A stretch of 64,000 nt of DNA, taken from NCBI GenBank assembly GCA_016712375.1, contig JADJRE010000014.1, positions 17,768 through 81,767 of the forward strand, read 5' to 3'. Both the position numbers and the translations under genes were made by a program. The notes beneath the pieces were generated by a model that saw nothing but the letters and a program-made list of their open reading frames with translations, made no database searches and was not told the DNA's origin. Below are positions 13,630 to 63,218 of the stretch, piece by piece. Numbering within the stretch: the first letter of the stretch is position 1; each line of letters opens with the position of its first letter. The DNA is from Rhodospirillales bacterium. Lineage in GTDB: Bacteria > Pseudomonadota > Alphaproteobacteria > Rhodospirillales > Defluviicoccaceae.

Positions 13630-13711
13630 GGCGCAGCTTCAGATTCGGGCGAAATCATCCCGATGTCAAAGGCCGTGCGCGCCGAACACCAACTTCGGCT
13701 ACAATCGCCCC

Positions 13712-15657: not shown

Positions 15658-16065
15658 ATGCGACCGGAACAGGGAGAAATGTGCGTACGGGTGCTGAGCG
15701 CGGTCGCCTGGTCGGACGGCCAGGTGACGGACGACGAGATGGAAAAGGTGGTACATCTGGTCTGCCAGCTTGATTACATCGATCGGTCGCAGGTGCAGGA
15801 AATCCTCCACATGCCGACGAGCTTTGTTCAGATCGAGGACGTGCGCGCGCTCGGACGCGACGGCCGGATCCGGCTGCTGCACGACGCCTACATGGTGGCG
15901 GTGCAGGACGGTCCGGTCGATGAGCATCAGCAAGCTATTCTGGCACAGATCGCCGAGACCGTGGTCCCCGGCGCATCCTGGGAGAAGGTCGACACCTGCC
16001 TCGCCACCTACGTCGATTACGAGACCAAGTGCCGGGGCTTGTGGGGGATCACGCATCTGGCTTGA
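15658..16065 (+). CDS. TerB-like domain protein (hypothetical)
   Basis: ATG 15658 is preceded by ggaggga. VLSAVAWSDGQVTDDEMEKVVHL...LLHDAYMVAVQDGPVDEHQQAIL resembles TerB/DjlA-N repeats. Family assignment is from memory only. Confidence 0.5.
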   Translation: MRPEQGEMCVRVLSAVAWSDGQVTDDEMEKVVHLVCQLDYIDRSQVQEILHMPTSFVQIEDVRALGRDGRIRLLHDAYMVAVQDGPVDEHQQAILAQIAETVVPGASWEKVDTCLATYVDYETKCRGLWGITHLA

Positions 16066-20717: not shown

Positions 20718-22288
20718 GCTGGCGCTCCCGCGAGCGCGTTGATCGCCGCTGCGGCGAAGGCGCTGCCACCACGCCTCCCGCGCAGCGTCACGTACGGCAC
20801 CCCGCCTGAATGCGCGATCAGCGCCTCCTTCGACTCCGCCGCGCCGACAAAGCCAACCGGGAAGCCCAGAATAACCGCCGGTCTCGGCGCACCTGAATCA
20901 AGCAGCTCCAGCAGGCGAAACAGTGCGGTGGGTGCGTTGCCGATGGCGACGACGGCGCCTTCCAGCCGATCGCGCCAGCGCTCAACCGCGGCGGCGGAAC
21001 GCGTGGTGCCGGCCGCCTGGGCTGCCTCGGCGATGCCCGGCTCGCGCAGCGTACACAGCACGGCGTTGGCAGCCGGCAGGTGGGCACGGATGACTCCCGC
21101 AGCCACCATCTCGGCGTCGACGAGGATGATGCTTCCCCTGGCCAACGCCCGACGCCCGGCCTCGACCGCGTCCGCGGTCCAGGCGAGGTCGGCGACGATG
21201 CCGGGATCACCCGCGGCGTGGATCATCCGCACCAGCAGCGGCTCGATATCCGCAGGCACCGTGGACAGGTCCGCCTCGGCGCGGATCGTCGCGAACGAGC
21301 GACGGTAGATTTCCTGCGGATCACGCAGATAGTCATCGGCGGTCGTGGCGGCGGTGACCGTCCTAGCGCGAGAGGCGTTCTCGATCCCTAGAATCCACGC
21401 CTCCTCCGTCTCCACCACGTGCCGCTGTTCGGCGCTCAGGGACGCCGGTCCAGCGAACAGCGACGCCAGCCGGCCATCCTCGTCAAGGCGGGCGAGTTGC
21501 TCGACCACCGCGTGAACCTGGCGAGCATCCTTGACCGGGTGGGCGACGGCGGCCGACTGGAAGATCGACGGATAGATCTCGGCGAGCAGCACCCGCCAGC
21601 CCGCGTCCGCCGGACGGTTGAGCTGGCGCAGGCCAGTTTCGAACGGCCACACGCGCACCCGATCGTCCAGCCAGGGGTGCCGGCGCAGTTGGTGGAGATG
21701 GGCAATGCCCATCAGCGTTTGACTGCCGACGCAGCCGGGATAGGCGAGCTTCCACACTGGGTGCGGGCCGCCTGCGGCAAGGTCGCACAGTCGCAGTTCA
21801 GCGAGGCCGTTCCCATCGGCGTCGGCAAAGCCGTCCGGCTTTCGGCCCGAGAGCATTGCGCCGGCCGACTGCGGCGGGCAGCCCCAGAACGGAAAGGCGG
21901 TCCCGGAGAGCCGCTCATTCAGCGCTGCTGCGACCTCAAAACGGTTGTTGGCATTGTCGTCCCCGTCGCGAATGCGGCCGGCCAGCTCGGACCATACCGC
22001 CCGCCAGTCGCCCCCCTCGCCGTACAGCATCCGCGCGAAGCCTGCGGGATAGCCGAAGGCGAAGTCGAACCCTGCGAGCACCGTCCTGTCGCGGGCGACC
22101 AGGTCGGCCAAATAATCGGCGAGGAACGCCATCGCCTGTCGGCGCGTCGGGGGATTGATAAGGCGCGCCGGTGGCAACGCACTGTCGCCGCGTTCGGCGG
22201 TGGCGATCCAGATGCTGTCGGCGCCGGTGGTTGGCACCGCGGCGGCGCTCCAATCGACCATCACGTAGGAATCGAAAACGGCGGGCAT
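20714..22288 (-). CDS. cobH: precorrin-8X methylmutase CobH/CbiC fused to a roughly 310-aa uncharacterised N-terminal domain
   Basis: The C-terminal roughly 210 aa (IYRRSFATIRAEADLS...MIHAAGDP...ILVDAEMV...VAIGNAPTAL...VILGFPVGFVGAAESK) are canonical CobH. The N-terminal part (VMVDWSAAAVP...GFDFAFGYPAGF...FPFWGCP...LAEIYPS) is not a cob domain that I recognise. There is no in-frame stop or plausible internal start at the junction. Confidence 0.8.
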   Translation of the reverse strand: MPAVFDSYVMVDWSAAAVPTTGADSIWIATAERGDSALPPARLINPPTRRQAMAFLADYLADLVARDRTVLAGFDFAFGYPAGFARMLYGEGGDWRAVWSELAGRIRDGDDNANNRFEVAAALNERLSGTAFPFWGCPPQSAGAMLSGRKPDGFADADGNGLAELRLCDLAAGGPHPVWKLAYPGCVGSQTLMGIAHLHQLRRHPWLDDRVRVWPFETGLRQLNRPADAGWRVLLAEIYPSIFQSAAVAHPVKDARQVHAVVEQLARLDEDGRLASLFAGPASLSAEQRHVVETEEAWILGIENASRARTVTAATTADDYLRDPQEIYRRSFATIRAEADLSTVPADIEPLLVRMIHAAGDPGIVADLAWTADAVEAGRRALARGSIILVDAEMVAAGVIRAHLPAANAVLCTLREPGIAEAAQAAGTTRSAAAVERWRDRLEGAVVAIGNAPTALFRLLELLDSGAPRPAVILGFPVGFVGAAESKEALIAHSGGVPYVTLRGRRGGSAFAAAAINALAGAPA

Positions 22289-22321
22289 CGGCTGCGTGTC
22301 CAGCGGACTCGGTTACTCTGC

Positions 22322-23507
22322 CTAGCCCGACCCCTCACCCTTCCGCTCCGCGGGTCCCTCCCTCTCCCGCGAGGGGGAAAGGGCCGGAGCGAGAGCATCG
22401 GGGAGACGAGAATCCGCCTCGCGCTGGTCATGGTGATGGCCGTGTCCCTGGTGATGGTGCCCGTGGCCGTGGCTGTGCCCATGCTGGTGGGTTTGGCTAT
22501 GCCCGTGCCCATCGTCGTGCCCATGCTCGTGCAGTTGGCCATGCCCGTGCCCATGGTCGTGCTCGTGCCCATGGTCGTGCCCGTGCCCATGGTCGTGCCC
22601 GTGCCCGTTGTCGCCATCGGTGCCGATGCCGCGGACATGGAAGTGATGGCCAACCTGCGGTGCGCCCTGGTCGGCTTCGTAGCCCAGCACCTGCTCGCGA
22701 TACTTGCACAGCAGGCAGTTCATCAGGTTGGCGCCATTCAGCGCCTCGCCGAGCCGCTCGACGAAAGTGTCGATAACCAGAGGATGATCGTTAAGGTAGT
22801 CGGCTTTGACGATCTCGATCTCGGGATGCGCCGCCGCGCAGGCGTCGGCATGCGCGTAGATGCGGTCGACCAGGATGCCGGTGAACAGGAAGTACGGAAG
22901 ACGATGATCCGCCGGTAACCGAGCCGCACCGCGTGCCGCAAGCCCTCGTCGACCAGCGGATAGGCGACGCCGGAATAGCAGACCTCGGTCCAGCCGAAGC
23001 CCATGCCCTCCCACAGCATACGCGCCACTTTGGAGATATTGGCGTTGGCGTCAGGATCGTTGGTGCCGCGGCCGACTACCATCAGCAACGTTTCCTTGCG
23101 GGGACTTGGCGTTCGCAGGCCGCCTCGGCGGCAGCGATCCGCGCGGATGCGGCGCGCAGCAGCTTGGTGTCGATCGCCAGTTCGCGCCCGAAGCTTACCG
23201 CTATCTGCGGGTTCTCCGCCGCGAAGGCGTTGATCTCGGACGGCAGGTCGTTCTTGACGTGGCCGGCGGCGAATAGCATCCCGGGCAGGCAGACGATGCG
23301 CTTCGCACCGCGGGCCTTCAGCGCCTCCAGGCCGGTGCGGATGACAGGCCGGGCAAACTCCAGAAAGCCGCTCTCGACGTCGCACTCCGGCAGCCGCTTG
23401 CGTAGGTGCCGGGAGACGGCGTGGAATTCCTCGACCGCCGCCACCGAACGGCTGCCGTGGCCACAGATCATCACGCCTAGGGAATCGGTCGGAACGGAAT
23501 CGGCCAT
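22322..23507 (-). pseudogene. cbiX: sirohydrochlorin cobaltochelatase CbiX, long form with His-rich tail, frame broken twice as sequenced
   Basis: Pieces are 23082..23507 (VMICGHGSR...FLEFARP...LPGMLFAAGHVKND), a middle part in the frame of ORF 22738..23580 (ETLLMVVGRGTNDPDAN...GVAYPLV) and 22322..23014 (PYFLFTGILVDRI...NCLLCKY...HGHDHGHGHDHGHEHDHGHGHG...). Breaks are near 23110 and 22910. Confidence 0.8.
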
Positions 23508-23748
23508 CGCTTGGTCCCTTGCCTTCGAGCGTCGTTGCCGTGAGCGGCGGTCTCGTGCCACCGCTTCCCCGGCTGGTCATCGCCTCCGGCCGGGCTCGGG
23601 TGCGGGACTATAGGGACCGGGCGGGCCTCTGTCACCAGCCGGTCATGGGGAGCGGCGTTGCTGCTCTGCAACTCGCGCCCGGTTGTCGATGGTGAACTGG
23701 ATCAGTTGATCTGGTTCGAACGCCAGGAAAATTATTCGCACCGCGATA

Positions 23749-48959: not shown

Positions 48960-51175
48960 AGCCCCAAAGGCACACATCGCGCCGTTCCCGACACGGGAGC
49001 AGATCACTGCCTTTATCCGCGAAAATGGTCCACGCGTCGGCAAACGAGAGATCGCCGGGCCTTCCGGCTGGACGCCGAGCAAAAGGTGGAGCTGCGCCGG
49101 GTGCTGAAGGAGATGGAAAGCGACGGCACGCTTGATCGCGACCGCGGCAGACGGTTCCGCCAATCTGGGACGCTGCCGAGCGTCGGTGTAATCGAAATCA
49201 TTGGCGTCGACACGGACGGCGAGACCACCGCCCGCCCCTTCGGCTGGACGGATGGCGCCGCCGCTCGTTTATGTTGCCCCAAAAGCGCAGCCGCGCCGCC
49301 TACGCCGCAGGCGAGAAAGTGCTGGCGCGACTGCGTCCGACCGACGGCGGCGGATACGAGGCACGCGTGATCCGCAGGCTGGCCGCCGCAGCCGACCGGG
49401 TCTTGGGCGTCGTTACTACCGTTGGTGAAACCACTCGCATCGTGCCAGTCGACAAACGGGCACGCGTCGAGTTTCTGCTTGCGCCGGAAGCTTCGATGGG
49501 GGCGGCGCCAGGCGAACTGGTGTGGGCGGAGGTTCAACCGGGCCGGCCGCTCGGGCTGAAGCAGGCTCGTGTTGCCGAGCGTCTTGGTCCAACGATGGGC
49601 CCGCGCTCGATCTCACTGATAACCATTCACGACCACGACATTCCTTTCGAGTTCCCAGCGGAAGCACTGTCACAGGCGGAAACCGCCGGCTCGGCGCCAC
49701 TCGCCGGCCGCGTTGATTTACGTTCGATCCCCCTCGTAACCATCGACGGCGAAGACGCTCGCGACTTCGACGATGCGGTGTGGGCAGAGCCGGACGGTGA
49801 TGCCGGCAATGTTGGTGGCTGGCACCTCCTGGTAGCCATCGCTGACGTTGCCCACTACGTCCGGCCGGGCAGCCCGCTCGATCGGGAGGCACTAAAGCGG
49901 GGTAACTCGGTCTACTTTCCTGATCGGGTCGTGCCGATGCTGCCGCATGCCCTGTCCAACGGTTGGTGTTCGCTGGTACCGGGTGAAGACCGTCCTTGCC
50001 TCGCGGCGCACCTGTGGATCGACGCTGACGGCGGACTCCTCCGTCATCGCTTCGAGCGGGCGGCGATCCGCTCGGCTGCCCGCCTCACCTACCGTCAGGT
50101 GCAAGCGGCGCGGGATGGCCGGTTCGACGACGCCACTGCTCCGCTCGCGGAGGCGGTAATCGCACCGCTGTATGAAGTGTTCGCGGCGCTTGCCCGGGCG
50201 CGTGCCAACCGCGGTGTGCTCGAGTTGGAAGTCCCGGAACGGCGCGTGCTTATCGGTGCCGATGGCGGCGTGGCCGGCATCGAGCTGCGCGAGCGGCTCG
50301 ACAGCCACAAGCTGATCGAGGAGTTCATGATCGCCGCCAACGTCGCCGCTGCCGAGGCGCTGGAGGAGCGCAAGGCGCCAGCGATGTACCGGGTGCACGA
50401 TCAGCCGAGCCGCGAGAAGCTGGAGTCGTTGCGCGAGTTCCTGGAGACCATCGATCTGCGACTGCCTCGCGGCCAAGGGGTCATGCGGCCGCGCGACTTC
50501 AACCGTATCCTGGCTCGCGTCGAAGGTCGTCCTGAGGCGCGAATGGTCAACGAGGTGGTACTGCGCAGCCAGGCGCAGGCGGCCTACGATCCAACCAATA
50601 TTGGCCACTTCGGCCTCGCTTTGCGGCGGTACTGTCACTTCACCTCACCGATTCGGCGCTACGCCGACCTGTTGGTGCACCGGGCGCTGATCCGTGCCTT
50701 TCGCTTTGGCGACGATGGCCTGCCTGCTGATGGCGAAGACTTCGGCCGGATCGCCGAGCATATCTCGGTCACCGAACGTCGCGCCGCCTCGGCCGAGCGC
50801 GACGCCGTGGATCGATATACGGCGGTGTTCCTCTCGGAACAGGTTGGCTGCGTGTTGCCGGGACGGATCGGCGGCGTTACCCGCTTCGGCCTTTTCGTGA
50901 CACTGGAAGGATCGGGCGCTGACGGCCTTGTTCCGATCTCCAGCCTTCCCGATGATTACTACGTCCACGACGAAAAGGCGCACTGCCTCATCGGCCGCAA
51001 CCACGGCCTGACCTTCCGTCTCGGTGATACGGTTGATGCCCGACTGGTTGAGGCCAACCCTCTCACCGGCGGCGTCATCCTCGAGCTGATGGGAGCCGGC
51101 GGCGAACGGCGGGGACGCCCACGACGCGGTTCCCCTTTACCGCGCGGCCGGGCGCCTGCCCGTCGACGACGATAG
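48922..51175 (+). pseudogene. rnr: ribonuclease R, N-terminal region frame-broken three times as sequenced
   Basis: N-terminal pieces: PFPTREQITAFIRENGPRVGKREIA (frame of the topA ORF), FRLDAEQKVELRRVLKEMESDG...GWTD (ORF 49086..), APPLVYVAPK (ORF 49201..), then RSRAAYAAGEKVLARL... in ORF 49271..51175. That ORF carries the RNB domain (TIDGEDARDFDDAV...YFPDRVVPMLP...HFGLA...YCHFTSPIRRYADL) and an S1 domain. Confidence 0.9.
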
Positions 51176-51180
51176 GATTG

Positions 51181-52179
51181 ATGCGGGTGTGGTCGGGATC
51201 GCCACTATTGCATGTCGAGGACGTTTTTGAGCACGCGCCATTTCCAGCGGCGCACGCCTCGACAATGGCCGAAACGGAAGCGGGCCTCGTCGCCGCCTGG
51301 TTCGCCGGCACCCGCGAGGGCCATGGCGATGTCGGAATTTGGGTCGCCCGCCGGGAGCACGGCCGATGGCTGTATCCGGTCGAGGTGGCCAACGGACGGC
51401 TTGCTCTGCGCCGGCGCTTGCCGTGCTGGAACCCGGTGCTGTTCCAGCGGAAGAAGGGCGAGCCGCTTTTGCTGTTCTACAAGGTCGGCCCCAGCCCTAG
51501 CCGCTGGTGGGGCATGTTGCTGACTTCGGAAGACGCCGGCTGTTCGTGGTCTGAACCGCGCCGATTGCCAAAGGGCATTCTGGGTCCGATCAAGAACAAG
51601 CCGATCCAATGGGCGGACGGCCGTTTACTCTGCCCATCGTCGGACGAGGAGGGGCGCTGGCGGTTGCATTTGGAGTGGACAGACGCGACGGCGACAACCT
51701 GGCGACGCGGACCGTCGCTGAACGACGGACCCGTCTTTGCGGCGATCCAGCCAACGCTGCTTACCCATGGAAGCCGGTTGCAGATGCTCTGCCGTACCCG
51801 CCAAGGCACGATCGGCCAATGCTGGTCGGAGGATGGTGGCGAAACCTGGACAACTCTGGCGCCGACCGATCTCCCTAATCCGGACAGCGGGATCGACGCG
51901 GTGGCGCTGGCAGACGGACGTGCGCTTCTCGTCTACAACCACAACCAGACAGGCCGGACGCCACTGAACCTCGCGATCAGCGATGACGGCGAAGCTTGGT
52001 CGGCTGTTGCAATTCTGGAGGATCAGCCGGGGGAATACTCCTACCCGGCGATCATTCAGAGCGCCGACGGTATCGTGCACGTCACCTATACCTGGAACCG
52101 TCGCCGCATCCGCCATGTAACGCTGTCGCCCACGGATTTTTGTTTGCGGCCTATCGTAGGCGGCCTCTGGCCGGAGTAA
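51181..52179 (+). CDS. BNR/Asp-box repeat sialidase-family (exo-alpha-sialidase-like) protein
   Basis: Asp-box repeats SEDAGCSW, SEDGGETW and SDDGEAW. The overall pattern is typical of the small bacterial sialidase-like beta-propeller family. Confidence 0.75.
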   Translation: MRVWSGSPLLHVEDVFEHAPFPAAHASTMAETEAGLVAAWFAGTREGHGDVGIWVARREHGRWLYPVEVANGRLALRRRLPCWNPVLFQRKKGEPLLLFYKVGPSPSRWWGMLLTSEDAGCSWSEPRRLPKGILGPIKNKPIQWADGRLLCPSSDEEGRWRLHLEWTDATATTWRRGPSLNDGPVFAAIQPTLLTHGSRLQMLCRTRQGTIGQCWSEDGGETWTTLAPTDLPNPDSGIDAVALADGRALLVYNHNQTGRTPLNLAISDDGEAWSAVAILEDQPGEYSYPAIIQSADGIVHVTYTWNRRRIRHVTLSPTDFCLRPIVGGLWPE

Positions 52180-52588: not shown

Positions 52589-53329
52589 CTAAAACAGTGT
52601 ACCGACGCCGCGAAAGCCGTTTTCGCCGACGGTCATCGTGAACTGGGGGTATTTCCCGTCCGGGTTGCTCTGACCGTAGATGTCAAACGGAGCCAAGTTG
52701 CGCGGCGGATTGATCGGGATGCCGCTCTGATCCCACGACAGCAGCAATCGCGGAAAGGTCAATGCCTCGAAGCGCTGCGACGGCCATCGCCGTGCGTTGA
52801 ACGTCATCCTGCCATTGATGCAAGCAACGCCCACCCAGAAGAAATCTTCGGACCGAAGGTAGAGGCCGCTCGGCGCGGGTTGAAAGAAGCCGCTCTGCAC
52901 AAGGCTGCCTACCAGCGCATCGATGTCGCGGCCGCCGAGGGTAAGGCTGCTCTTGCGGCCGGCGAACGGCGCCAGCAGGTCAAGCGGGTCGTTGATGATC
53001 GTTGCAGGATCTATCTGGACGTTGCTCAGGTCGGAAGGTCCGAGAACACGCGCGCGTAACAAATATCCCTCGCCGCTGGGGTGCGGCGAAAGGTCATAAG
53101 TGCGCGCCTGCTGAATGTAGACGCCGTTGTAGACAAAGCGGAAGCGGTCAACGGCGCCGGGAACGCAGGCGGCGCGAATGTCATCACCGTTCATGTAACT
53201 AAACCAGGTGAAGCGTTGGGAGATCGCATCATCCCGTCCTCGATAGGAGCAACTCGATGCCACAGCGGCGAGAAGTGTCACGGCTAACGTGACGAGGCGG
53301 GCGGGGCGGGGAGCGAAAGCAGCGAACAT
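52589..53329 (-). CDS. hypothetical lipoprotein
   Basis: Lipobox LLAAVASSC. 246 aa. No family recognised. Confidence 0.5.
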   Translation of the reverse strand: MFAAFAPRPARLVTLAVTLLAAVASSCSYRGRDDAISQRFTWFSYMNGDDIRAACVPGAVDRFRFVYNGVYIQQARTYDLSPHPSGEGYLLRARVLGPSDLSNVQIDPATIINDPLDLLAPFAGRKSSLTLGGRDIDALVGSLVQSGFFQPAPSGLYLRSEDFFWVGVACINGRMTFNARRWPSQRFEALTFPRLLLSWDQSGIPINPPRNLAPFDIYGQSNPDGKYPQFTMTVGENGFRGVGTLF

Positions 53330-53533: not shown

Positions 53534-54685
53534 ATGCAAGGGTTTTACAGACACAATGGCGATAACCCCCTGTCAAGTCATTGCCGATTTTATGACGCTA
53601 GCCTCGATCCAGCACGCTGGCCTCATGCTCTCTTGTCCTTAGGGGAGTGGATCAAGGCAGAAGCTGTCGGTCTTCTGGTTCACGACTTCGATGATGGCTC
53701 GGGGCGGTTTGAGCGCGCCGTCGGGATTAGCGCCGAGGCACAAGCCAACTACCGACGCACTTATGCGCGGGGTAATCCCTGGTTCCAGTCAGATGTTCCC
53801 TTTCGTTGTCCGTCGGGAGTGGCGCGGGGAAGTGATATTGGTAGCTCGGAGGTGCTAAAGGCGTCCCCTTTCCATCGTAACTGGCTCCGGCCGACGGGTC
53901 TTCATCATCACCTTTTCGGCGTGATCGAGCGCCACGGGAGCGTCGTCACCTTTCTGATGCTGGCAAGACGCGACGGTAAGGCGGACTTTGGCGATGACGC
54001 CAAGCGCGACTTGCAAATGTTGCTGCCGACCTTGGCGCGCGGGCTTGGTGCGGGTGCCGGCATCCGTCAGCTGCGGGCGCTAGAGCGAGCTGTCCTGCAT
54101 GCGATTGACGCCCTGCCCATGGGCGTGGTCGTCCTTGACCGAAATGGCGGCGTAATTGAGGCGAATCCCTTTGCACGCAAGTTGATCGAAGTTGGGGAAG
54201 GTCTTGCCGTCATTGACGGCGGCCTGGGAACGGAGGTCGGCAACCGCAAGGTAAAGCTGCGCGATCTGATCGTCCGCTCTGGCGACCGAGCGGGCCAGAC
54301 GATCAGCGATGATCTGGCGCTGCTGCCTGTACAACGGACGTCGTCGCAACGACCGCTGACGTTGCTGCTGGCACCGCTGGAAGAGGAGTCATCAGGCGGC
54401 AACGGCCGTGCCCCCGCAGCGCTACTGTTTATCGGCGATCCGGAGCGACCGACTAAGTTCGATCAAACACGCATTGCGCGTCTTTATGGGCTGAGTCGCG
54501 CTGAATCCCGCGTCGCCGCCTTGCTTGCTGGTGGTTATCGCCTGGAGCAGGTGGCGGAAACGCTCGACATTGCTTACGAGACAGTGCGCAAGCACCTGAA
54601 ACAGATATTCGGCAAGACCGGTACCTATCGGCAAGCGGAGTTGGTGCGCATGCTGGTCACTGGACCAGCGGGCCTGTCGATCTGA
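53534..54685 (+). CDS. LuxR-family transcriptional regulator (N-terminal sensory domains plus C-terminal HTH)
   Basis: C-terminal LSRAESRVAALLAGGYRLEQVAETLDIAYETVRKHLKQIFGKTG is a LuxR/FixJ-type HTH. The N-terminal FYDASLDPARWPHALLSL is typical of this Rhizobiales regulator class. Confidence 0.8.
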   Translation: MQGFYRHNGDNPLSSHCRFYDASLDPARWPHALLSLGEWIKAEAVGLLVHDFDDGSGRFERAVGISAEAQANYRRTYARGNPWFQSDVPFRCPSGVARGSDIGSSEVLKASPFHRNWLRPTGLHHHLFGVIERHGSVVTFLMLARRDGKADFGDDAKRDLQMLLPTLARGLGAGAGIRQLRALERAVLHAIDALPMGVVVLDRNGGVIEANPFARKLIEVGEGLAVIDGGLGTEVGNRKVKLRDLIVRSGDRAGQTISDDLALLPVQRTSSQRPLTLLLAPLEEESSGGNGRAPAALLFIGDPERPTKFDQTRIARLYGLSRAESRVAALLAGGYRLEQVAETLDIAYETVRKHLKQIFGKTGTYRQAELVRMLVTGPAGLSI

Positions 54686-54876
54686 TGTTTCCAACCAAGG
54701 GCCGGCAGATCGGGAGACGGCCTCACCTCTAAGCGGCCGCGGAAAACGAACGCGGAAGCTGCGTCCGGTGCCATAAGGGTGGCCGCGCCCCTATCCCCTC
54801 CGTCAATCGAGCGGCGGGAACAATGTCACGATCGAGGCCCTCGCGACAGCCAGCGGCGACTGCCCGACACTGCGGC

Positions 54877-55977
54877 ATGATTCGCGCCGCAACAGCCGAG
54901 GACATACCCGCCCTCGTCGAGATCGAGAATCGCGCCTTCTCGACCGACCGCATCTCGCGGCGTTCCTTTCGCTACCTGCTGTCGAAGGCTAAGGCGGCAG
55001 TGCTGGTCGAGACTGACGCATCTGGCTTCGTTCGTGGCTACGCGCTGCTGCTGTTCAACCGGGGCACTTCGTTATCGCGTCTCTACTCGATCGCCGTTGA
55101 TCCCTCACGGCAGCGCGAAGGTGTTGGCAGGACCTTGCTGGCAGCAGCGGAGGCGGCTGCCCGCGACCGCGGCACGGCCTGGATGAGGCTCGAGGTTCGT
55201 GCCAACTCGCTGGACGTGCAAGCCTTTTACAAGGCACATGGCTTCCACAAATTTGCTCTCCAACCACACTACTACGAAGACGACGTGGCGGCCGTGCGGA
55301 TGGAGAAATCACTGGCGCCGCGCCGTGATCCGAGCCTGATGCGCGTGCCCTATTACGCGCAGACGCTCGACTTTACCTGCGGGCCGGCGGCGGTACTGAT
55401 GGCCATGCGGGCTCTCGATTCCGGCACGCGGGTCGATCAGACTGCGGAGATCCGGATGTGGCGCGAATCGACGACGGTATTCATGACCTCCGGCCTCGGA
55501 GGCTGTAGCCCGGAGGGTCTGGCGCTGGCGGCGCAGCGCCGCGGCTTCACAGTCGAATTGTTCCTCAGCGAAGGCGGCGTGCTGTTTGTTGATTCCGTTC
55601 GCAGTCCTCTGAAACGGGAGGTAATCCGCCTGGTGCAGGAGGATTTTCGGGAACAGTTGGCGATCTGTGGCGTCAAGATGACATTCCGGCCGTTGACGTT
55701 AGAGGCAATGCGCCGCTATTGCGAAGAAGGCAGCGTGCCGGTGGTATTGATCAGTTCCTGGCGGTTCGATCGCGAAAAGCAGCCGCATTGGGTGGTGGTG
55801 ACCGGGTTCGATTCGAACTACGTCTACCTCCACGATCCGAACGTCGACGAAGAACTCGACAAAACTCCGACCGATTGCATGCAGATCCCGGTGCTGCAAG
55901 GAGAATTCGTTAAGATGGCGCGCTACGGCAAGACGCAACAGCAGGCAGCGTTGGTGATCGGCAGGGTTCGCGACTGA
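54877..55977 (+). CDS. bifunctional GNAT N-acetyltransferase / C39-like cysteine peptidase domain protein
   Basis: ATG 54877 within ORF 54823..55977. GNAT domain: IRAATAEDIPALVEIENRAF...RQREGVGRTLL...AFYKAHGF. Papain-like domain: YYAQTLDFTCGPAAVLMAM...HWVVVTGFDSNYVYLHDP, with a Cys and a His in the C39-type context. Confidence 0.75.
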   Translation: MIRAATAEDIPALVEIENRAFSTDRISRRSFRYLLSKAKAAVLVETDASGFVRGYALLLFNRGTSLSRLYSIAVDPSRQREGVGRTLLAAAEAAARDRGTAWMRLEVRANSLDVQAFYKAHGFHKFALQPHYYEDDVAAVRMEKSLAPRRDPSLMRVPYYAQTLDFTCGPAAVLMAMRALDSGTRVDQTAEIRMWRESTTVFMTSGLGGCSPEGLALAAQRRGFTVELFLSEGGVLFVDSVRSPLKREVIRLVQEDFREQLAICGVKMTFRPLTLEAMRRYCEEGSVPVVLISSWRFDREKQPHWVVVTGFDSNYVYLHDPNVDEELDKTPTDCMQIPVLQGEFVKMARYGKTQQQAALVIGRVRD

Positions 55978-57583
55978 TGCCGTCGCATGTCGTCGTCGTC
56001 GATCGCCGCTCAGACTTTCCTTGGGCCGCTCCGGATCGGCTGGTTATGCCGGCGAAGGAATTTGTGGGTGAAGCGGCGCGTCGTCTTCCTGCCTCGGCGC
56101 GGGTCATCAACCTCTGCCGCGACATGAGCTACCTCAGCCTCGGATACTACTGCTCGCTGCTGGCTGAAGCGCGGGGGCAAAAGGCGATCCCGTCGGTCGA
56201 GGTCATGCTCGACCTGCATTGGAAGCGGCTGTTACGCATCGCTCTACCGGAAGTGAATGAGCTGGTGCGTAGGACTTTCCGCGTGCCGCCGGAGATGCAG
56301 CCACCGTTTACCGTTACGATCTTTTTCGGCGAGCCGGATGACCCTCGCCTGACGGTGGCAGCGCGGCGCATATTCGAGCTGTTCCGCTGCCCGCTCCTGG
56401 CTGTTGAGCTGCGCCACAAGAACGGCTGGGCGATCGAGTCTATCGAGCCGATCTCAATCCGCGAAGTGCACACGGACCAGCGGCAGCTGTTCATTGAGGC
56501 GCTCGATCGGTACACCCGCGCTGCTTGGCGACGCCAACGAACGACGACGCCGGCCCGCTGGTGCATCGCCATGCTGCAAGATCCTAAAGAGAAGCTGCCT
56601 CCGTCAAACGGCAAGGCGCTGGAGCGGTTCGTACGCGCCGGCGCACAGCTGGGCTGCGACGTGGAGTTGATCACCCGCGCCGATTACGGGCGTCTTGCCG
56701 AATTCGATGCCCTGTTCATCCGGGAGACCACGGCGCTCGATCACCACACCTATCGCTTCGCCAAGAAGGCAGAATCCGAGGGGTTGCCGGTGATCGACGA
56801 CACGCGCTCGATCCTCAAGTGCACCAACAAAATCTATCTTGCCGAACTTCTGCAGGCGAACGGAGTCCCGTGCCCGCGGACGCTCATTCTCGATCGTCGT
56901 GGAATCGGCAGGATCGAGCGCGAGTTGGGCTTTCCGGCAGTGATCAAGATACCCGACGGCTCGTTCTCGCGCGGCGTCTACAAGGCGATGAGTGCGGCCG
57001 AGCTGGAGGACATTGCCGAGCGCATCTTCAAGGAGACGGACCTGATCATAGCCCAGGAGTACATGGCGACAGCATTCGACTGGCGAGTAGGCGTGCTCGA
57101 CCGTAATCCGCTGTTCGTCTGCCAGTACTTTATGGCACGCGACCACTGGCAGATCGTCAAGCACGGCAATTCCGGCGAGGCCGAAGAGGGTGGGGCGCGA
57201 ACCTTTGCACTCGCCGACGCGCCTGCGAAGGTCGTCGAGATAGCAACAAAGCGGCCAGCCTGATCGGCTCCGGTCTTTATGGCGTCGATTTGAAGCAGAA
57301 CGAGCGCGGCGTCTTTGTTGTCGAGGTCAATGACAACCCTAATATCGACGCCGGGGTTGAGGATGCGGTGCTGAAAGACGAACTCTACCGCGCCGTCATC
57401 GGTTCGCTGGTCCGGCGGTTGGAGAAGCGCATGCAGCCGGGCCGCGGTCGCAATGGCAATGCGCTGACGCTCGGGCAGCCGCAATCGCTTGATCGGCTAT
57501 TGAATCCCTCTCGCGACGGTTCCATCCGCTCGGCAGCGGAAGTGATCCCTGTCGACGAAGGCAGGACCACCGTCACCGGCTGA
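55977..57583 (+). pseudogene. RimK-family ATP-grasp ligase with RLAN-type N-terminal domain, frame broken once as sequenced
   Basis: ORF 55977..57263 (N-domain ...SYLSLGYYCSLLAEARGQKAIPS...; ATP-grasp LPVIDD...NKIYL...FPAVIKIPDGSFSRGV...IAQEYM...DWRVGVL) continues in ORF 57290..57583 (GLYGVDLKQNERGVFVVEVNDNPNID). The break is near 57250. The ATG overlaps the upstream TGA. Confidence 0.8.
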
Positions 57584-57841
57584 GGCCTCCCCGCCCCAAG
57601 CGCAATGACGCGAACAGGTGCCGCTTGGTCTTGCATCGGCTGATGCATTTGCGTATGATCTTCACCTGCTGAGGTAACGAAACACCTTCGCGTGTTCAGT
57701 CCAAGTCTACGGTGCGAAGTCGGGTAGTAGCTCACTAGAAGCTGCGCCCTCGAACAGGGTCTGCTAGTGTAATCCTTACCATCTTGATCGGTCGAAGTTG
57801 TTCGGCTCAAAATTGTGTGCAATGGGGAGGGAGGGATATCT

Positions 57842-59893
57842 ATGTCCCTGCGCAGTTTTAATCAGACTTTGACAATCGCCGGCACCGTCGTCGGCATAGA
57901 TCTCGCCGTTCCTTCATTTACAGTGGAAGCTCGCAGCGGCGACAAATTCGAGGCCGTCGTCGGCCGAGAGACATATTACTCGGTGCTGTCTAATCTGGAC
58001 GGCCTCGATCGGAACCGCGTTCCTCCGCCGGAAGGCGTCTCTGGTGACGACAGCGTGATCTACAACCTGCAGAAGTATGCCGTGGCTGGCCGGCCGCTGT
58101 CGGTCAGGGGCATTTATCAGCAAAATGACGGCCGCGAGCGATTCGAGGCACGCGACGTATACCTGCTGCACTCCGATCCACAGCGCTACCTGTTCGAGGA
58201 AACGCACTGGTGGCCGACCCAGGTGACGCAGATGGCCGATCGAATCCTCGACCATCTGTTCGATGCCAAGCGCAGTTACTCGATCGACGATTTCTCTGAA
58301 TTCTACCGGACGAACCTGAATATCCTTGGCCAGGCGACGGACGAGACGGTGCAGGAATGTGCCGTGCTGTCGCGGCTTCTCTACGACTTGGCGTCCGCTT
58401 ATATGATGACTGGCGCCGAACGTTACCTGATGGCGGCGCGCGCGGCGGCGAACTACCTGCGCGAGGCGTTCCGCAGCCTCAGTCACGACGGGCGCTATTG
58501 CTTCTGGGCTTACGGCCGGCGGCGCAACATACAGGGCGAGCGCGGCGAGTATCTGCTGTTCGCCTCGCAAGGCCCGGACGACCACGGGACAATCCCGCTT
58601 TACGAGCAAATTTACGCGCTCGCCGGTCTGACGCAGTTTTACCGTATCACCCTGGACTGGGAGGTCCTGGAGGACATCCGACGCACCATCAACAGCTTCC
58701 AGGATTTCTTCTGGGACCCGCCGTCGGCCAAGGAGAAGGGCTTCGCCGGCGCCGGCGGCTATTATTCGCACCTCGATCCGGCGACAATGCGCCCCGATAC
58801 GGTGACGCCTGAAGAAAACCGTTCGCGCAAGAACTGGAATTCCGTGGGCGACCACATCCCGGCGTACCTGGTCAACCTCATCCTGTCGATCGAGCCGCTG
58901 CCCCAGGGTACCGTTCGGCAAATGTTCGCGCCGCTGCTCGAACGCTGCCACGGCATTCTGGAGGAGACCTCGTCGCTGATCTGCGAGAAGTTCCCGGACC
59001 CGAATTCGGATTTTGTCATCGAACGGTTTCATGCCGACTGGACGCCCGACCTGTCCTACCGCTGGCAGCAGAACCGGGCGGTGGTCGGCCACGACCTGAA
59101 GATCGCCTGGAACCTGACGCGCTGTGCCTATTACTTCCAGACACGTGCCAAGCGACTGCGCGATGCCGGCAAACCGCAGGACGCCGCTGGCTACGATCAA
59201 CGCTCCGACCGCTGCCTGGAGGTCGCGAAACGACTGGCTGATCGCATGGGCGAGGTCGGGCTGGACAAGATTCGCGGCGGCATCTTCGACTGCGTCGAAC
59301 GCAATCCGAGCGGCGGAATGCCAACCCAGTTTGCCTGGGGCGCCACCAAAGACTTCTGGCAGCAGGAGCAGGGCATACTCGCCTACCTTATCCTTTACGG
59401 CGCGACCAACGACGCCAAGTACCTGCGGATGGCGCGCGAGTCGTCGGCCTTCTGGAACCTGTTCTTCCTCGACCGCGAACGGCAGGGATACTTCTTCCGC
59501 ACCACCGAAAACGGCCTGCCGATCCTGGAAGGCCAGTATGCGATGAAGAGCAGCCACGCCATCGGCTACCATGCCTTCGAGTTGGCCTATCTTGCCCACC
59601 TGTACACTCGCGCGCATGTGGCTGCGGGCGGTGGCAGCGACAACAGCTTCTGTCTTTATTTCAAGATCTGCAGCATCAAGCAGCAGCAGTCGATCAACGT
59701 GCTGCCCGACTTTATGCCCCCCGGCCGGGTGCGCATTGCTTCGGTACGCGCTAACGGTGTGGACGTGACGGAGGATCTCGATCCGGCAAATCTCGCCGAA
59801 TACCAGATACCGACTGATGCAATGACGCCAGATCCGGTGAGCGGCGCTGTCGAACTCGTCGTCGAGTTCCACGCAAGTCCTGCTCATTCGTAG
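57842..59893 (+). CDS. N-acylglucosamine 2-epimerase (AGE) superfamily (alpha/alpha)6-barrel protein with extra N- and C-terminal domains
   Basis: ATG 57842 after gggagggaggga, within ORF 57815..59893. VVGHDLKIAWNL and FWQQEQGILAYL match the GH-x-E...W and W-x-Q-x-E motifs of AGE / cellobiose-2-epimerase-type barrels. Function unknown. Confidence 0.65.
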   Translation: MSLRSFNQTLTIAGTVVGIDLAVPSFTVEARSGDKFEAVVGRETYYSVLSNLDGLDRNRVPPPEGVSGDDSVIYNLQKYAVAGRPLSVRGIYQQNDGRERFEARDVYLLHSDPQRYLFEETHWWPTQVTQMADRILDHLFDAKRSYSIDDFSEFYRTNLNILGQATDETVQECAVLSRLLYDLASAYMMTGAERYLMAARAAANYLREAFRSLSHDGRYCFWAYGRRRNIQGERGEYLLFASQGPDDHGTIPLYEQIYALAGLTQFYRITLDWEVLEDIRRTINSFQDFFWDPPSAKEKGFAGAGGYYSHLDPATMRPDTVTPEENRSRKNWNSVGDHIPAYLVNLILSIEPLPQGTVRQMFAPLLERCHGILEETSSLICEKFPDPNSDFVIERFHADWTPDLSYRWQQNRAVVGHDLKIAWNLTRCAYYFQTRAKRLRDAGKPQDAAGYDQRSDRCLEVAKRLADRMGEVGLDKIRGGIFDCVERNPSGGMPTQFAWGATKDFWQQEQGILAYLILYGATNDAKYLRMARESSAFWNLFFLDRERQGYFFRTTENGLPILEGQYAMKSSHAIGYHAFELAYLAHLYTRAHVAAGGGSDNSFCLYFKICSIKQQQSINVLPDFMPPGRVRIASVRANGVDVTEDLDPANLAEYQIPTDAMTPDPVSGAVELVVEFHASPAHS

Positions 59894-59917: not shown

Positions 59918-61470
59918 ATGCCCGACAAGTCGCTCGCCGGCAAGAAGATCGCCGTACTGGTCGAAAGTCAGTACATCCCCGGAGAAATCAGGGCATATCA
60001 GGAGCGCTTCGCCTCTTATGGTGCTGAAGTGCATCTGATGTCTCGGCTGTGGGGAAACCCCAGCGGACGCTTCTATTCAACCGTTGAGCCGGACGACAAG
60101 GGCAACGTCCCGCCGATCGAATGGCTCGATGTATCAATCGATTTCGACCACGTGAACCTGAACGACTACGCCGCGGTGGTCGCGGCAGCCAACTATACAA
60201 CCGTCCGCCTGCGCTATTCCGAGCGGGAGATCACCACCGGCAACGCTGCCGAGGTGGCGCGCAATGCGCCCGCGGCGCGTTTCTTCCGCCGGGCGATGGA
60301 GAACCCGAAGATCATCAAGGGGGCGCCGTGCCATGCGCTGTGGCTGCTGACGCCCTCGCCCGACCTGCTGGCCGGTCGCAAGGTGATCTGCAATCCCGTG
60401 GTGCTGGCCGACCTCATTAACGCCGGCGCCATCTACACGCCCTGTCCCGCCGGCACGCCGCCCGAGCAGCAGGTAGTGGTCGATCGCGATCTCGTCACGA
60501 ATCCGGGATGGCACGCCAGCAACGCCCTCGTTGATGCGATGCGCGAGCAGATCCTTAATCCGCCGCTAGCGTTACAGACCGACCCGCCGCCGGCGGTCCC
60601 GGTCACGCCGGCCAAGCGCCGCATCCTGATTGTGCTCTCGGAGTGGGGATACTGGGGTGAGGAGCTGGTCGGACCGCTGGGCGAGTTCGATCGGGCAGGC
60701 TATCAGATCGACTTCTGCACCCCGAACGGCCGTCGGCCGAACGCCATTCCCGTCAGTTGGGATCCCAGCTTCTTCGATCCGCCGCTGCAACGGCCGGTGA
60801 CCTCCGACAGCATGGCCGCGCGTGTCATCGAGATGGATGATCCCTCGACGCAGCAGGGAAAGCGCCTCGACAATCCGATCAGCCTCGCGGACTGGTTCCC
60901 GCAGCGGCCCTACTTCGCGGCGCCCACGTTCGTGCGTGGCCTGGAAGCTTACAACCGCCAGCTGGTCGATGCGCAGCGCGGGATCGAGAAGTACGACGCG
61001 GTGCTTATCGTCGGCGGCTCGGGGCCGATCGTCGATCTCGTCAACAACCAGCGGGTTCACGATCTGATCTTGGCCTTCCTCGCCGCCGGCAAGCCGATCG
61101 GCGCGGAATGCTATGGTGTTGCCTGCCTCGCCTTCGCCCGCGACATGAACATGCGAGAGAGCATTATCCGCGGCAAGCACGTCACCGGGCACTGCCTGGA
61201 GTACGACTACCAGGACGGCACCGCGTTTGTCGAATCGCGCGGGCAATTCCTGAACTTCAACATGGGCCCGCCGCCTTACGCGCTGGAGTTCATCCTGCGG
61301 GACGCCACGGCGCCGGGCGGTGCCTACCATGGCAATTTCGGCCACCCGACCAGTGTCATCGTTGATTATCCGTTTATCACCGGCCGGTCGACGCCGGACA
61401 GCATCCTCACCGGTCAAAAAATGATCAAGTGCTCGACGGCAACCCGCCGCTGCGCCGGTGGGGTTGGTAA
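59918..61470 (+). pseudogene. tandem DJ-1/PfpI (class I glutamine-amidotransferase-like) domain protein, C-terminus frame-broken as sequenced
   Basis: Two repeats: KKIAVLVESQY...IKGAPCHALWLL...VVVDRDLVT and RRILIVLSEWGY...DAVLIVGGSG...PIGAECYGVACLA...VIVDYPFITGRS. After ...GQKMIK (about 61425) the -1 frame gives VLDGNPPLRRWGW and TAA 61468..61470. The track ORF runs on out of frame to 61864. Confidence 0.75.
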
Positions 61471-61538
61471 AGCGCATATCCCGCCGTCGCGCCTGGCCGG
61501 CGGCAGGCAGTTACATGCACGGATAAGGAGCAGGCGTC

Positions 61539-63218
61539 ATGCCCACAGCATCGGGGCATCGCAAGCTGCTGGAGCAGTTGGAAGCCGATGGCATCACCAC
61601 GATGTTCGGCAATCCCGGCAGCAGCGAAGAGGGGTTGCTCGACGAGATCAGCCGCTTTCCCGGAATCCGCTACATCCTGGGCCTGCAGGAGGCGACGGTC
61701 GTGCAGATCGCTGCCGGTTTCGCGCAGGCGACGCAGCGCCCGACCGCCGTTCAGCTGCACTGCAGCGTCGGCACCGGCAACGCCCTAGGCAGCCTGTACC
61801 ATGTGTTTCGCAAGCAGCGGACGCCGCTGGTGGTGATCGCGGGCGAAGCGGGTATGTCATATGACGCGCTCGACGCGCACATGGCGCTTGATCTCGTCAC
61901 CTTCGCCCGGCCGGTGACCAAGTACGCGGCGCGGGCCATCCATCCGGGCAGCCTTCTGCGGCTGCTGCGTCGCTGCATCAAGACAGCGATGACGCCCCCC
62001 TTCGGTCCCACCTACCTTGCCGTGCCACAGGACGTGCTCGACATGCCGAATGACGAGCCGGTGCTGCCGACGTCGATCCCGGACACGCGCGTGGCGCCGT
62101 CGCCCGAGGCCATCGCCCATGCAGCGGAGCTGCTGGCTGGTGCTGAAAATCCGGTGATCATCATCGGCGACGGCGTTTCGCACGCCCAGGCACACGGCGA
62201 ACTGGCGACGGTGGCGGAGCGGCTTGGTGCCGGCGTCTGGGGGGCCATGGTCTCCGAGCTGAACATCCCGTGGTCGCACCCGCTCTACCGCGGGCTGACA
62301 GGGCACATGTTTGGGTCCACCAGCCGACGCATCGTTGAGGACGCCGACGCCGTGCTGATCTGCGGCACCTATGTTTTCCCGGACGTTTTCCCGCTGGTGG
62401 AAAATCCGTTTCGCCCGGACGCCAAGATCGTGCACATCGATCTGGACACCTATGCCCTCGCCAAGAACCACGCAGTGACCCTTGCTCTGGCCAGCGATCC
62501 GAAACCGACGCTGGCGCTGCTGGCCGATGCTCTGGCGGCACGCATGACACCCGCGCAAAAACAGGCGGCGGCGGCCCGCGCTGAACAACTTCGTGCGGAC
62601 AAGGCGGCAGCGCGCCTGCGCGATCTGGCGGCGGATGCCGAGCGGCGCGAGGCGGTACCGCTTTACATGTCGGCGTTTGCTGAAGAGCTGGCGAAGCATC
62701 TGCCACCTGACGCCATCGTCTATGACGAAGCGCTCACGTCGTCAGGTCTCACGCGCTATTTCGTGCCCGAGCGTCCTGGCAGCTTCTTTCAAACGCCGGG
62801 AGGTACGCTTGGCGTCGCCTTTCCCGGCGCCATCGGTGTGAAGATTGCGCATCCCGACCGCACGGTGATCGGCTTTGGTGGCGACGGTGGCGCTCTTTAT
62901 ACCTTTCAGTCGCTGTGGACCGCGGCGCATTACCGCGTGGCTGCCAAGTTTGTCGTCTGCAACAATCGAAGCTACCGGCTGCTGAAAGACAATCTCGTCG
63001 TCTACTGGCGCGACATGAATATCCAGCAGACGAATTTCCCGCCGTCGTTCGACATCCATGATCCGGAGATTGATTACGTGGCGCTCGCGAAGGGACTGGG
63101 CGTGCCTGGCCTGCGGGTGACCAAACCTGGCGAAATGGCTGGGGCCATCTCCGCAATGTTGTCGCACGACGGTCCATTCCTGATCGACCTGATCATGGAA
63201 GACAGCGTGCACCGCTAG
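61539..63218 (+). CDS. thiamine-diphosphate-dependent enzyme (acetolactate synthase / benzoylformate decarboxylase family)
   Basis: aaggag RBS. N-terminal GITTMFGNPGSSEEGLLD, and the ThDP-binding motif GFGGDGGALYTFQSLWTAAHY...VVCNNRSY. Confidence 0.85.
   Translation: MPTASGHRKLLEQLEADGITTMFGNPGSSEEGLLDEISRFPGIRYILGLQEATVVQIAAGFAQATQRPTAVQLHCSVGTGNALGSLYHVFRKQRTPLVVIAGEAGMSYDALDAHMALDLVTFARPVTKYAARAIHPGSLLRLLRRCIKTAMTPPFGPTYLAVPQDVLDMPNDEPVLPTSIPDTRVAPSPEAIAHAAELLAGAENPVIIIGDGVSHAQAHGELATVAERLGAGVWGAMVSELNIPWSHPLYRGLTGHMFGSTSRRIVEDADAVLICGTYVFPDVFPLVENPFRPDAKIVHIDLDTYALAKNHAVTLALASDPKPTLALLADALAARMTPAQKQAAAARAEQLRADKAAARLRDLAADAERREAVPLYMSAFAEELAKHLPPDAIVYDEALTSSGLTRYFVPERPGSFFQTPGGTLGVAFPGAIGVKIAHPDRTVIGFGGDGGALYTFQSLWTAAHYRVAAKFVVCNNRSYRLLKDNLVVYWRDMNIQQTNFPPSFDIHDPEIDYVALAKGLGVPGLRVTKPGEMAGAISAMLSHDGPFLIDLIMEDSVHR

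Follow-up and report, generated by a model that had tools for sequence, protein, structure and literature searches.

A two-gene system in which an RLAN-RimK-like ATP-grasp protein is accompanied by a GNAT/papain-like peptidase was reportedly predicted in 2009 by Iyer, Abhiman, Burroughs and Aravind (Mol Biosyst 5:1636), and the Pfam entry RLAN (PF14401) is said to record it. A gene pair of this kind lies in a stretch of 64,000 nucleotides from a Rhodospirillales bacterium (assembly GCA_016712375.1, contig JADJRE010000014.1, positions 17,768 to 81,767 of the forward strand; this whole stretch is called the window hereafter), where an earlier note, made from the letters alone, had described it as a predicted peptide-ligation system. 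When compared with the system of 2009, the window pair comprises the same two genes in the same domain order and adjacency, meaning that the architecture is identical, and what sets the window copy apart is a deletion of one nucleotide (nt) in the ligase gene together with clade-specific neighbours, namely a LuxR-family gene and a gene for a lipoprotein-like protein. The window pair is a further, damaged member of an already predicted family, and it can be regarded as almost certain that the module matches this architecture and that the window copy is disrupted as sequenced. Literature searches on DUF3335, RLAN, RimK with C39, RimK with GNAT and Azospirillum with RimK returned no experimental study of the pair and no experimentally assigned pathway, in line with the note's statement that the system had been discussed from comparative genomics only. 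The sole mention of DUF3335 found, in PMC10318531, refers back to the comparative-genomics paper of 2009, and the RimK remark in a salinity paper (PMC10219603) stays at the generic level of KEGG orthology (KO). In NCBI records the two products are named 'GNAT family N-acetyltransferase/peptidase C39 family protein' and 'RimK family protein'.

Three further systems frame the comparison. Ngg is a fusion of a GNAT with an ATP-grasp enzyme. Collard et al. reportedly described in 2010 that mammalian NAT8L and RIMKLA make N-acetylaspartylglutamate (NAAG). According to PMC8070244, which summarises Sagot et al. 2010, the Ngg system, making N-acetylglutaminylglutamine amide (NAGGN), involves N-acetylation and peptide-bond formation, whereby a peptidase resides in the same operon (PA3461). 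RimK and RimB, in part together with RimA, constitute a poly-glutamylation system for ribosomal protein S6 in Pseudomonas and E. coli, as described in PMC7343187, PMC10092738 and PMC11957791. The latter two also describe that RimK clade enzymes add Glu and that RimK pairs with a dedicated trimming protease, to which it is sometimes fused. Crystallography of RimK-PA identified S7, R8, S14, R64, S68, R189 and N262 as contacts to poly-Glu and the S6 C-terminus (PMC10092738).

Architecture of the gene pair

The segment 53534-57583 holds three genes, all on the + strand (LuxR, GNAT-peptidase and ligase), and every sequence feature that the earlier note had described for the pair is present at its place. 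The TGA of the GNAT-peptidase gene (55975-55977) shares one base with the ATG of the ligase gene (55977-55979), as had been claimed. The features of the pair, with lengths in amino acids (aa) and including one open reading frame (ORF) that ends early, are:

54877..55977, + strand: GNAT + DUF3335 gene, 366 aa, assigned by Pfam match
55360..55380, + strand: N-terminal active-site motif of the peptidase, YYAQTLDFTCGPAA, with the oxyanion-hole Gln162 at 55360-55362 and the nucleophile Cys168 (DFTCGPAA) at 55378-55380
55786..55836, + strand: peptidase His304 (PHWVVVTGFD) at 55786-55788 and His319/Asp320 (LHDP) at 55831-55836, with the third catalytic residue in LHDP
55975..55979, + strand: TGATG stop/start overlap of 1 nt, read directly from the sequence
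55977..57263, + strand: RLAN + ATP-grasp ligase gene, 5' part as sequenced, a 428-aa ORF with a premature TGA

The first gene had been claimed to fuse an acetyltransferase with a papain-like domain, and searches with profile hidden Markov models bear this out. The Pfam model DUF3335 'Peptidase_C39 like' (PF11814) matched with E=1.1e-82, the profile being covered over its full length, Peptidase_C39_2 matched with E=3.7e-9, and the three GNAT models Acetyltransf_10, Acetyltransf_1 and Acetyltransf_7 matched with E about 1e-11 to 1e-12. In domain order, a RimI/Ard1-like GNAT (aa ~1-150) precedes the DUF3335/C39-like papain-fold domain (aa ~157-361). The GNAT domain begins at the protein start (MIRAATAEDIPALVEIENRAF...), leaving no N-terminal extension able to be a signal peptide; an alternative in-frame ATG lies upstream at 54823, and more than 3,400 homologs were obtained among 8,000 candidates scored, most of them 366 aa long and starting at the MIR... 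methionine.

In both sequence and fold, RimI and archaeal Ard1 are the top matches of the GNAT half, whereby the curated RimI model TIGR01575 gave E=2.3e-19 and 69.9 bits and its cut-off of 86.4 was missed. The AlphaFold model of the protein (predicted local distance difference test, pLDDT, 88) retrieved RimI (5isv/2cnm) and Ard1 (4pv6) as top Foldseek matches with E about 1e-12 to 1e-13; the output of whole-model Foldseek searches is dominated by the GNAT and ATP-grasp halves. In the peptidase domain, the family alignment (A1; 19 sequences, down to 56% identity) shows no variation at Q162, C168, H304, H319 and D320, and the Cys in DFTCGPAA and the His in HWVVVTGFD that the earlier note had taken as catalytic are among them, so that the dyad is retained. 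When the peptidase domain was searched as a profile, its Q...C and H...D motifs aligned with the C39 double-glycine protease 6mpz, and the H...D segment also with the C39-like 3erv and with BtrH-N-domain proteins, each with weak E-values. The bacteriocin-processing C39 family PF03412 scored 17.1 versus a threshold of 22 bits, which is below the Pfam gathering cut-off.

For the second gene, the roughly 200-aa N-terminal extension of the RLAN type was recovered as claimed (PF14401, E=5.6e-44, aa 33-174, nt ~56073-56498), N-terminal to a RimK-type ATP-grasp, so that RLAN, ATP-grasp, GNAT and C39-like assignments all hold. The truncated 428-aa ORF gives weak ATP-grasp matches and also holds the pre-ATP-grasp and central domain, the K324/GSFSRG loop and E361. 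The frame-repaired ligase matches Pfam RimK with E=5.5e-9, plus Dala_Dala_lig_C and ATP-grasp_3, and the 3' part of the gene encodes ...ASLIGSGLYGVDLK...VEVNDNPNIDAGVED..., corresponding to the Mg/ATP-binding residues D438, E450 and N452 and a variable low-complexity tail. Across the ligase family, K324, E361, D438, E450 and N452 are invariant (alignment A3).

An intact metagenomic ortholog, P0121, exactly 535 aa long and 96% identical at the protein level, was used for scoring against curated models, and it stayed below each cut-off: rimK_fam (TIGR00768) 82.0 versus 143.4 bits, PRK10446 (NF007764) 28.8 versus 331, LysX 83.7 versus 275.6, MptN 55 versus 350 and CofF 27.6 versus 300 bits. The model of P0121 (pLDDT 75) superposes on RimK, LysX, ArgX and Ddl with TMt up to 0.82, the Foldseek matches 7qys, 5zct, 3vpd and 3vpb having E about 1e-16 to 1e-17 and TMt 0.75-0.82, and its identity to RimK 7qys amounts to 24%. 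R249, R370 and N452, which are the equivalents of RimK R64, R189 and N262, are invariant in the ligase family; the region of RimK S7, R8 and S14 was left unaligned to the ligase by HMMER. Because the scores miss the curated rimK_fam, LysX, MptN and CofF cut-offs, the ligase is, judged from its sequence, best placed as a separate branch within the RimK/LysX clade. Of the RimK-type ligase that had been claimed, the ATP-grasp fold and its motifs thus stand, and RimK itself is matched by resemblance but not by membership. More than 7,800 homologs of the ligase query were scored.

As to RLAN itself, comparison with PDB sequences returned no significant match, and in the predicted model it forms an alpha/beta domain. 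A resemblance to the caspase p10 subunit was discarded as not significant (E=0.3-1.2). The alignment of RLAN with its own ATP-grasp by hhalign is collinear over 163 columns, with a probability of 1.9% and a score of 21.7 versus 15.1±2.5 for a block-shuffle null, a score matched by one in 60 block shuffles (P about 0.03). This statistically weak result hints at RLAN being a degenerate duplicate of the ATP-grasp and is kept as a lead. RLAN alone comprises 694 clusters at 50% identity (E<=1e-3). One of its members, P0313 (727 aa), combines RLAN with ~550 aa that have no Pfam match at E<=1e-3, for which a divergent ATP-grasp or another partner domain is possible.

The deletion in the ligase gene

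The reading frame of the window ligase is broken ahead of its Mg/ATP-binding motifs, the features concerned being:

57248..57250, + strand: frameshift site, a 1-nt deletion (AAA versus AAAA), from DNA alignment to the intact ortholog
57251..57583, + strand: 3' part of the ligase gene in the -1 frame, from three-frame translation; the ORF listing shows 57290..57583 alone

As sequenced, the ORF 55977..57263 stops after 428 aa, and the C-terminal 97 or more aa continue in the -1 frame to 57583. A frame-repair scan revealed that one base inserted anywhere in about 57245-57259 yields a 535-aa protein, the length of P0121, and the DNA alignment to the ortholog (L081) places CAACAAAGCGG of the window against CAACAAAAGCGG, meaning that one A is gone from an A4 run. 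D438, E450 and N452 sit 3' of the lesion and are out of frame as sequenced, so that with regard to catalytic residues the peptidase set is present in the window copy and the ligase set is incomplete. Neither segment of the ligase gene contains a further stop. At the other loci, each of the 72 orthologous ligase ORFs that are complete reads through without a break (486-535 aa), and orthologs align across the break as a single high-scoring segment pair. Programmed frameshifting was considered and rejected, as the site offers an A3 run only, with neither a slippery heptamer nor a long homopolymer, and the orthologs are all contiguous.

A second 1-nt deletion was identified 4.2 kb downstream, at ~61427 within the double-domain DJ-1/PfpI-like gene 59918..61864, where the window reads ATC-AAGTG versus ATCGAGGT in the ortholog (L003). 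Its native end ...EVLDGNPPLRRWGW is replaced by an Arg-rich run-on of ~145 residues, the true end ...GQKMIEVLDGNPPLRRWGW would lie immediately ahead of the ATG of the following gene at 61539, and the ORF as sequenced overlaps the thiamine pyrophosphate (TPP)-enzyme gene 61539..63218 by 326 nt.

Barring an assembly error at the deletion, the window module is non-functional as sequenced. A true mutation, with the module decaying into a pseudogene in its host, was considered at somewhat less than even chances: the motifs of the Mg/ATP site are lost from the reading frame, and the DJ-1-like gene likewise lacks 1 nt when set against its ortholog. Both lesions are nonetheless deletions of a single base, one of them in a homopolymer, the rest of the ligase is 96% identical to the intact ortholog with no other stop, and the orthologs are intact throughout. 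Two deletions within 4.2 kb would furthermore be a high number for true mutations in otherwise well-conserved genes, and therefore an assembly or consensus indel artefact is held to be somewhat the more probable origin of the deletions. Because its ligase is frameshifted, the window copy is a poor experimental subject. The chromids of Azospirillum brasilense Sp7, A. argentinense and other Azospirillum strains carry intact pairs that likewise overlap by 1 nt, as does Tistrella mobilis; in Sp7 the two genes lie at 7908-9134 and 9134-10615 of L082 (chromid NZ_CP012915.1). Accordingly, A. brasilense Sp7, A. argentinense and T. mobilis offer intact copies in tractable hosts.

Conservation and neighbourhood of the family

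A scan of reference genomes confirmed at least 544 loci, whereby the counts of linkage and neighbours given here derive from the best 80 or so. These best 80 loci belong to Alpha- and Gammaproteobacteria, Planctomycetota, Leptospiraceae and Syntrophales, and the nearest relatives of the window pair are found in Rhodospirillales metagenome-assembled genomes and in Defluviicoccus vanus. That the two genes form a conserved linked pair, as had been proposed, was verified: the RLAN ligase lies directly 3' of the GNAT-peptidase gene on the same strand in 75 of 80 loci, and 65 of 77 junctions are tight, with 35 overlaps and 30 gaps of at most 30 nt. Clustering of the neighbouring ORFs over the loci revealed no gene beyond the pair to be conserved across clades. 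Two neighbours of the window copy are nevertheless specific to its clade:

53534..54685, + strand: LuxR-family regulator (Pfam GerE helix-turn-helix E=2.7e-7, PAS_8 E=1.2e-4)
52589..53329, - strand: lipoprotein-like hypothetical protein, 246 aa, divergent, no family match

The LuxR gene ends 191 nt 5' of the GNAT-peptidase gene, and its presence upstream on the same strand agrees with the earlier note. The suggestion that it may control the pair did not fare as well and is a guess based on adjacency: LuxR accompanies the pair in the Rhodospirillales clade of the window only (8 of 81 loci), the LuxR-GNAT intergenic region ranges in length between 190 and about 850 nt, and its comparison revealed no conserved operator or motif, so that LuxR was rejected as a core regulator. 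The lipoprotein-like gene is conserved, by tblastn and in divergent orientation, within the LuxR clade only (L001-L003, L007, L008, L010, L012), and its product (signal …LLAAVASSC…) gave no match in Pfam, NCBIfam or PADLOC. ArgA (N-acetylglutamate synthase), Dam, IlvD and PstS-OmpA co-occur at the loci of one gammaproteobacterial clade, and ArgA was dismissed as a functional partner, since its occurrence with Dam, IlvD and PstS reflects synteny inherited within that clade. LuxR, ArgA and the other neighbours are accordingly taken as lineage noise.

Two associations recur more widely. A ~566-aa M14 carboxypeptidase, consisting of a T/A-like catalytic domain and a C-terminal extension, is encoded divergently and directly upstream in 12 loci from four clades (L015, L016, L023, L031, L033-L035, L040, L045, L048, L052, L078). 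A membrane protein of the DUF155/RMND1 family follows in seven loci, three of them without the ligase: it stands directly after the GNAT-C39 gene (120-250 nt), in place of the ligase, in L023, L067 and the contig-end locus L079, and after the ligase in L024, L035, L056 and L071. It may be a variant or accessory component.

Several kinds of partner were looked for and not found. No linkage to rpsF was seen at any locus examined, no AsnO or M42 cluster is among the recurrent neighbours, and the neighbourhoods of the pair contain neither ABC exporters nor precursor ORFs; a LysW-like carrier gene or genes of lysine/arginine pathways are not linked to the pair either. When 1,549 small ORFs flanking the pair at 76 loci were clustered, none proved conserved, which extends to all these loci the absence of a precursor ORF stated for the flanks in the window; the recurring small ORFs are shadow frames of neighbour genes only, and a system based on precursor peptides, i.e., on peptides that the ribosome makes and that are altered after translation (RiPPs), was hence rejected. 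A riboswitch or leader RNA was likewise discarded, as Rfam gave no match at E<=1 in 52500-58000 and no convincing promoter or terminator was seen at the pair locus. Neither the GNAT-C39 protein nor the intact ligase hit any family of PADLOC-DB v2, and no relatives of the pair were found on viral contigs; phage matches are generic RimK-like ATP-grasps without RLAN, and with the missing PADLOC match this led to the rejection of an anti-phage defence or mobile module.

In four independent representatives (P0294, P0338, P0357, P0358; loci L083-L086; 641-665 aa), GNAT, RLAN and ATP-grasp are natural single chains lacking the peptidase, and the contigs of P0294, P0357 and P0358, which were fetched, have unrelated housekeeping neighbours (electron transfer flavoprotein, aldo-keto reductase, FtsZ). 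On one fusion contig, FtsZ_C and weak DUF5805 matches were noted among the neighbours. Such Rosetta-stone fusions link the acetyltransferase straight to the ligase, and because they omit the peptidase, acetyltransferase and ligase are, judged from this architecture, the functional core, with the peptidase as an accessory and no dedicated partner gene required. Peptidase trimming, which the earlier note had listed as part of the system, thus stands as far as a domain with its catalytic residues is concerned but is not essential to the module. A 985-aa GNAT-C39-ligase ORF of Defluviicoccus vanus Ben 114 (L008, NZ_CP053923.1, 9767..12724) was set aside as unreliable, since its linker contains a masked 'NN' and the ORF has three further ambiguous codons. 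The peptidase also occurs alone, on annotated plasmids: a DUF3335-like 'peptidase C39 family' gene ends an operon for a peptide-type ABC importer in S. meliloti AK83 pSINME02 (L087, 5004..5672), and another adjoins an iron-siderophore importer in Streptomyces NBC_00184 (L088, 4545..5663), which suggests cytoplasmic processing of imported peptidic compounds by these stand-alone forms.

The wider surroundings of the window pair (49271..52179 and 57815..59893) contain genes for RNase R, for a sialidase-like protein with BNR repeats and for a GlcNAc-2-epimerase-like protein of 692 aa; among the fetched loci, L003 is the only one in which the epimerase-like and DJ-1-like genes share synteny with the pair. 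At a distance, ~13300..23600 holds a cobalamin-biosynthesis cluster (CbiD, CbiJ, tetrapyrrole methylases, CbiG, CbiC, CbiX), in which the CbiC domain is confined to the C-terminal 195 aa of an ORF of 524 aa, CbiX is matched over part of its profile only (positions 1-57 of 106) and an 891-aa ORF joins methylase, CbiG and methylase; these odd ORFs could be natural fusions or more frameshifts.

Possible functions and comparison with described systems

By analogy with the systems introduced above, the module is tentatively read, at somewhat short of an even chance, as a self-contained cytoplasmic system that would make, cap and trim short N-acetylated acidic or amide peptides from free amino acids. 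The RLAN-ATP-grasp protein would use ATP to activate a terminal carboxylate as acyl-phosphate, after which an amino acid would be added; with RimK, MptN, CofF and RIMKLA as a guide, L-Glu or an acidic or amide residue related to it is the most likely one. The RimI-like GNAT would cap the free alpha-amino end of substrate or product with acetyl-CoA, and the Cys-His peptidase would hydrolyse the same bonds, restricting chain length or allowing the product to be recycled, a part played by RimB alongside RimK. The product would be a short N-acetylated di- or oligopeptide, a counterpart of NAGGN or NAAG that might serve as metabolite or compatible solute and would not be a RiPP. For this reading speak the predicted catalytic residues, which are invariant family-wide in all three enzyme domains, the precedent of RimK clade enzymes adding Glu and working with a trimming protease, and the absence of a conserved precursor or small ORF and of any other cross-clade gene, which fits free amino acids as substrates. 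The importer-linked stand-alone peptidases, as cytoplasmic small-peptide contexts, and the M14 carboxypeptidase adjacency are counted on the same side, as are the conserved tight linkage of the pair, the fusions without peptidase and the lack of any signal-peptide extension on the GNAT-peptidase protein. Weighing against it, the nearest relatives of both core domains work on proteins: RimI and Ard1 are protein N-alpha-acetyltransferases and not amino-acid acetyltransferases, and LysX, ArgX and RimK all act on protein C-termini. Moreover, the Ngg model TIGR03103 gave 19.7 bits versus 569 and matched the GNAT part only, with no AsnO-like gene alongside, RLAN could serve to recognise a protein, and the associations with M14 and with importers concern a minority of loci or distant cases.

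The same relatives lead to the main rival, which was judged rather unlikely yet deserving of weight: a housekeeping protein encoded elsewhere would be extended at its C-terminus by the ligase with Glu or some other residue, in the way that RimK acts on S6 and LysX/ArgX act on LysW, the GNAT would acetylate a protein N-terminus and the C39-like peptidase would trim the tail, similar to RimB. S6 and S18 form a heterodimer, and in its specific version this rival assumes the S6:S18 heterodimer to be modified at both ends by one module. The GNAT best matches RimI and archaeal Ard1 in sequence and fold, the ATP-grasp has its closest sequence and fold relatives in LysX, ArgX and RimK (24% identity to 7qys, TMt about 0.8), the equivalents of RimK R64, R189 and N262 are invariant, the extra RLAN could dock a protein target, and a neighbouring M14 carboxypeptidase would fit removal of C-terminal residues. 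Set against this are the lack of a candidate target gene linked in any clade, the missed RimK and RimI cut-offs, and the N-terminal poly-Glu contacts of RimK (S7, R8, S14), which cannot be aligned. To our knowledge, no single protein has been described as the target of both a GNAT and a RimK-type ligase, whereas N-acetyl-dipeptide synthesis has two precedents. RimK/RimB itself provides a precedent for ligase plus protease, natural hybrids included (PMC11957791). A broader picture spans this rival and the synthesis of free peptides, namely a stand-alone, non-ribosomal 'write-cap-erase' machine for N-acetyl-oligo-acidic peptides, a class not yet described in bacteria that would act as NAAG-like metabolites or osmolytes, or for tagging an S6:S18-like pair at both ends, with RLAN as the catalytically dead remnant of a duplicated ATP-grasp that docks the substrate or sets the length; it was considered speculative and unlikely.

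A transferase role of the papain-fold domain in place of hydrolysis is improbable. BtrH works together with the ATP-grasp enzyme BtrJ in butirosin synthesis, following a protecting-group logic, and a BtrH- or phytochelatin synthase-like transpeptidase or acyltransferase would move an acetyl-protected aminoacyl or peptidyl unit, made by the ATP-grasp, to an amine, cofactor or envelope acceptor. The weak PDB matches of the peptidase profile do include BtrH-N-domain proteins, aligned on the region of the catalytic His, but at E=0.05-0.8 they lack significance, the conserved surroundings contain neither a carrier protein nor genes of an acceptor pathway or of other biosynthesis, and the GNAT-RLAN-ATP-grasp fusions dispense with the peptidase. 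Least probable is a role in cofactor synthesis like that of MptN and CofF, in which the ligase would lengthen a glutamyl tail on a cofactor resembling folate, F420 or methanopterin, with the other domains being accessory. MptN (55 bits) and CofF (27.6 bits) were hit among the NCBIfam models, and Pfam is said to describe RLAN in euryarchaea as well as bacteria; these scores are nevertheless far under the cut-offs of 350 and 300, genes of cofactor biosynthesis are not among the conserved neighbours, and an N-alpha-acetyltransferase and a cysteine peptidase would be left without a role.

With N-acetyl-peptide synthesis as the tentatively preferred reading, the pair can be set beside the described systems. 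It shares with C39 bacteriocin peptidases and BtrH a papain-like fold, as indicated by Pfam matches and the Gln/Cys/His/Asp arrangement, but its peptidase, for which DUF3335 is closest, is predicted to be cytoplasmic and lacks both an ABC transporter fusion and leader-peptide substrates. LysX and ArgX give the best NCBIfam and PDB sequence matches to the ATP-grasp, and 3vpd, 3vpb and 5k2m are among the best fold matches, whereas the LysX score falls far below its cut-off and no LysW-like carrier accompanies the pair. With Ngg and NAAG synthesis the pair has in common N-acetyltransferase and peptide-bond-forming functions, which in the GNAT-RLAN-ATP-grasp fusions likewise reside on single chains; in contrast to Ngg, there is no specific sequence relationship and no AsnO, the peptidase is C39-like and not M42, and RLAN is absent from Ngg. 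RimK/RimB resembles the pair in its same-clade ATP-grasp (TMt about 0.77, up to 24% identity), in a co-encoded dedicated protease and in the occurrence of RimK ligase-protease fusions, but differs in that its protease is a retropepsin and that of the pair a papain-fold Cys enzyme, and in that the pair adds a GNAT and the ~190-aa RLAN. The presence of the pair in the window is unsurprising to a specialist, while the function of the family is a genuine question: it is large, spans Proteobacteria and several other phyla, and no experimental work on it was found. The pair joins ATP-dependent amide ligation, N-acetylation and a thiol peptidase, activities which elsewhere make the N-acetyl peptides NAAG or NAGGN, with signalling or osmoprotective roles, or, in RimK/RimB, reprogramme ribosomes, and identification of its product would add either a new class of small molecule or a new route of protein modification to those known systems.

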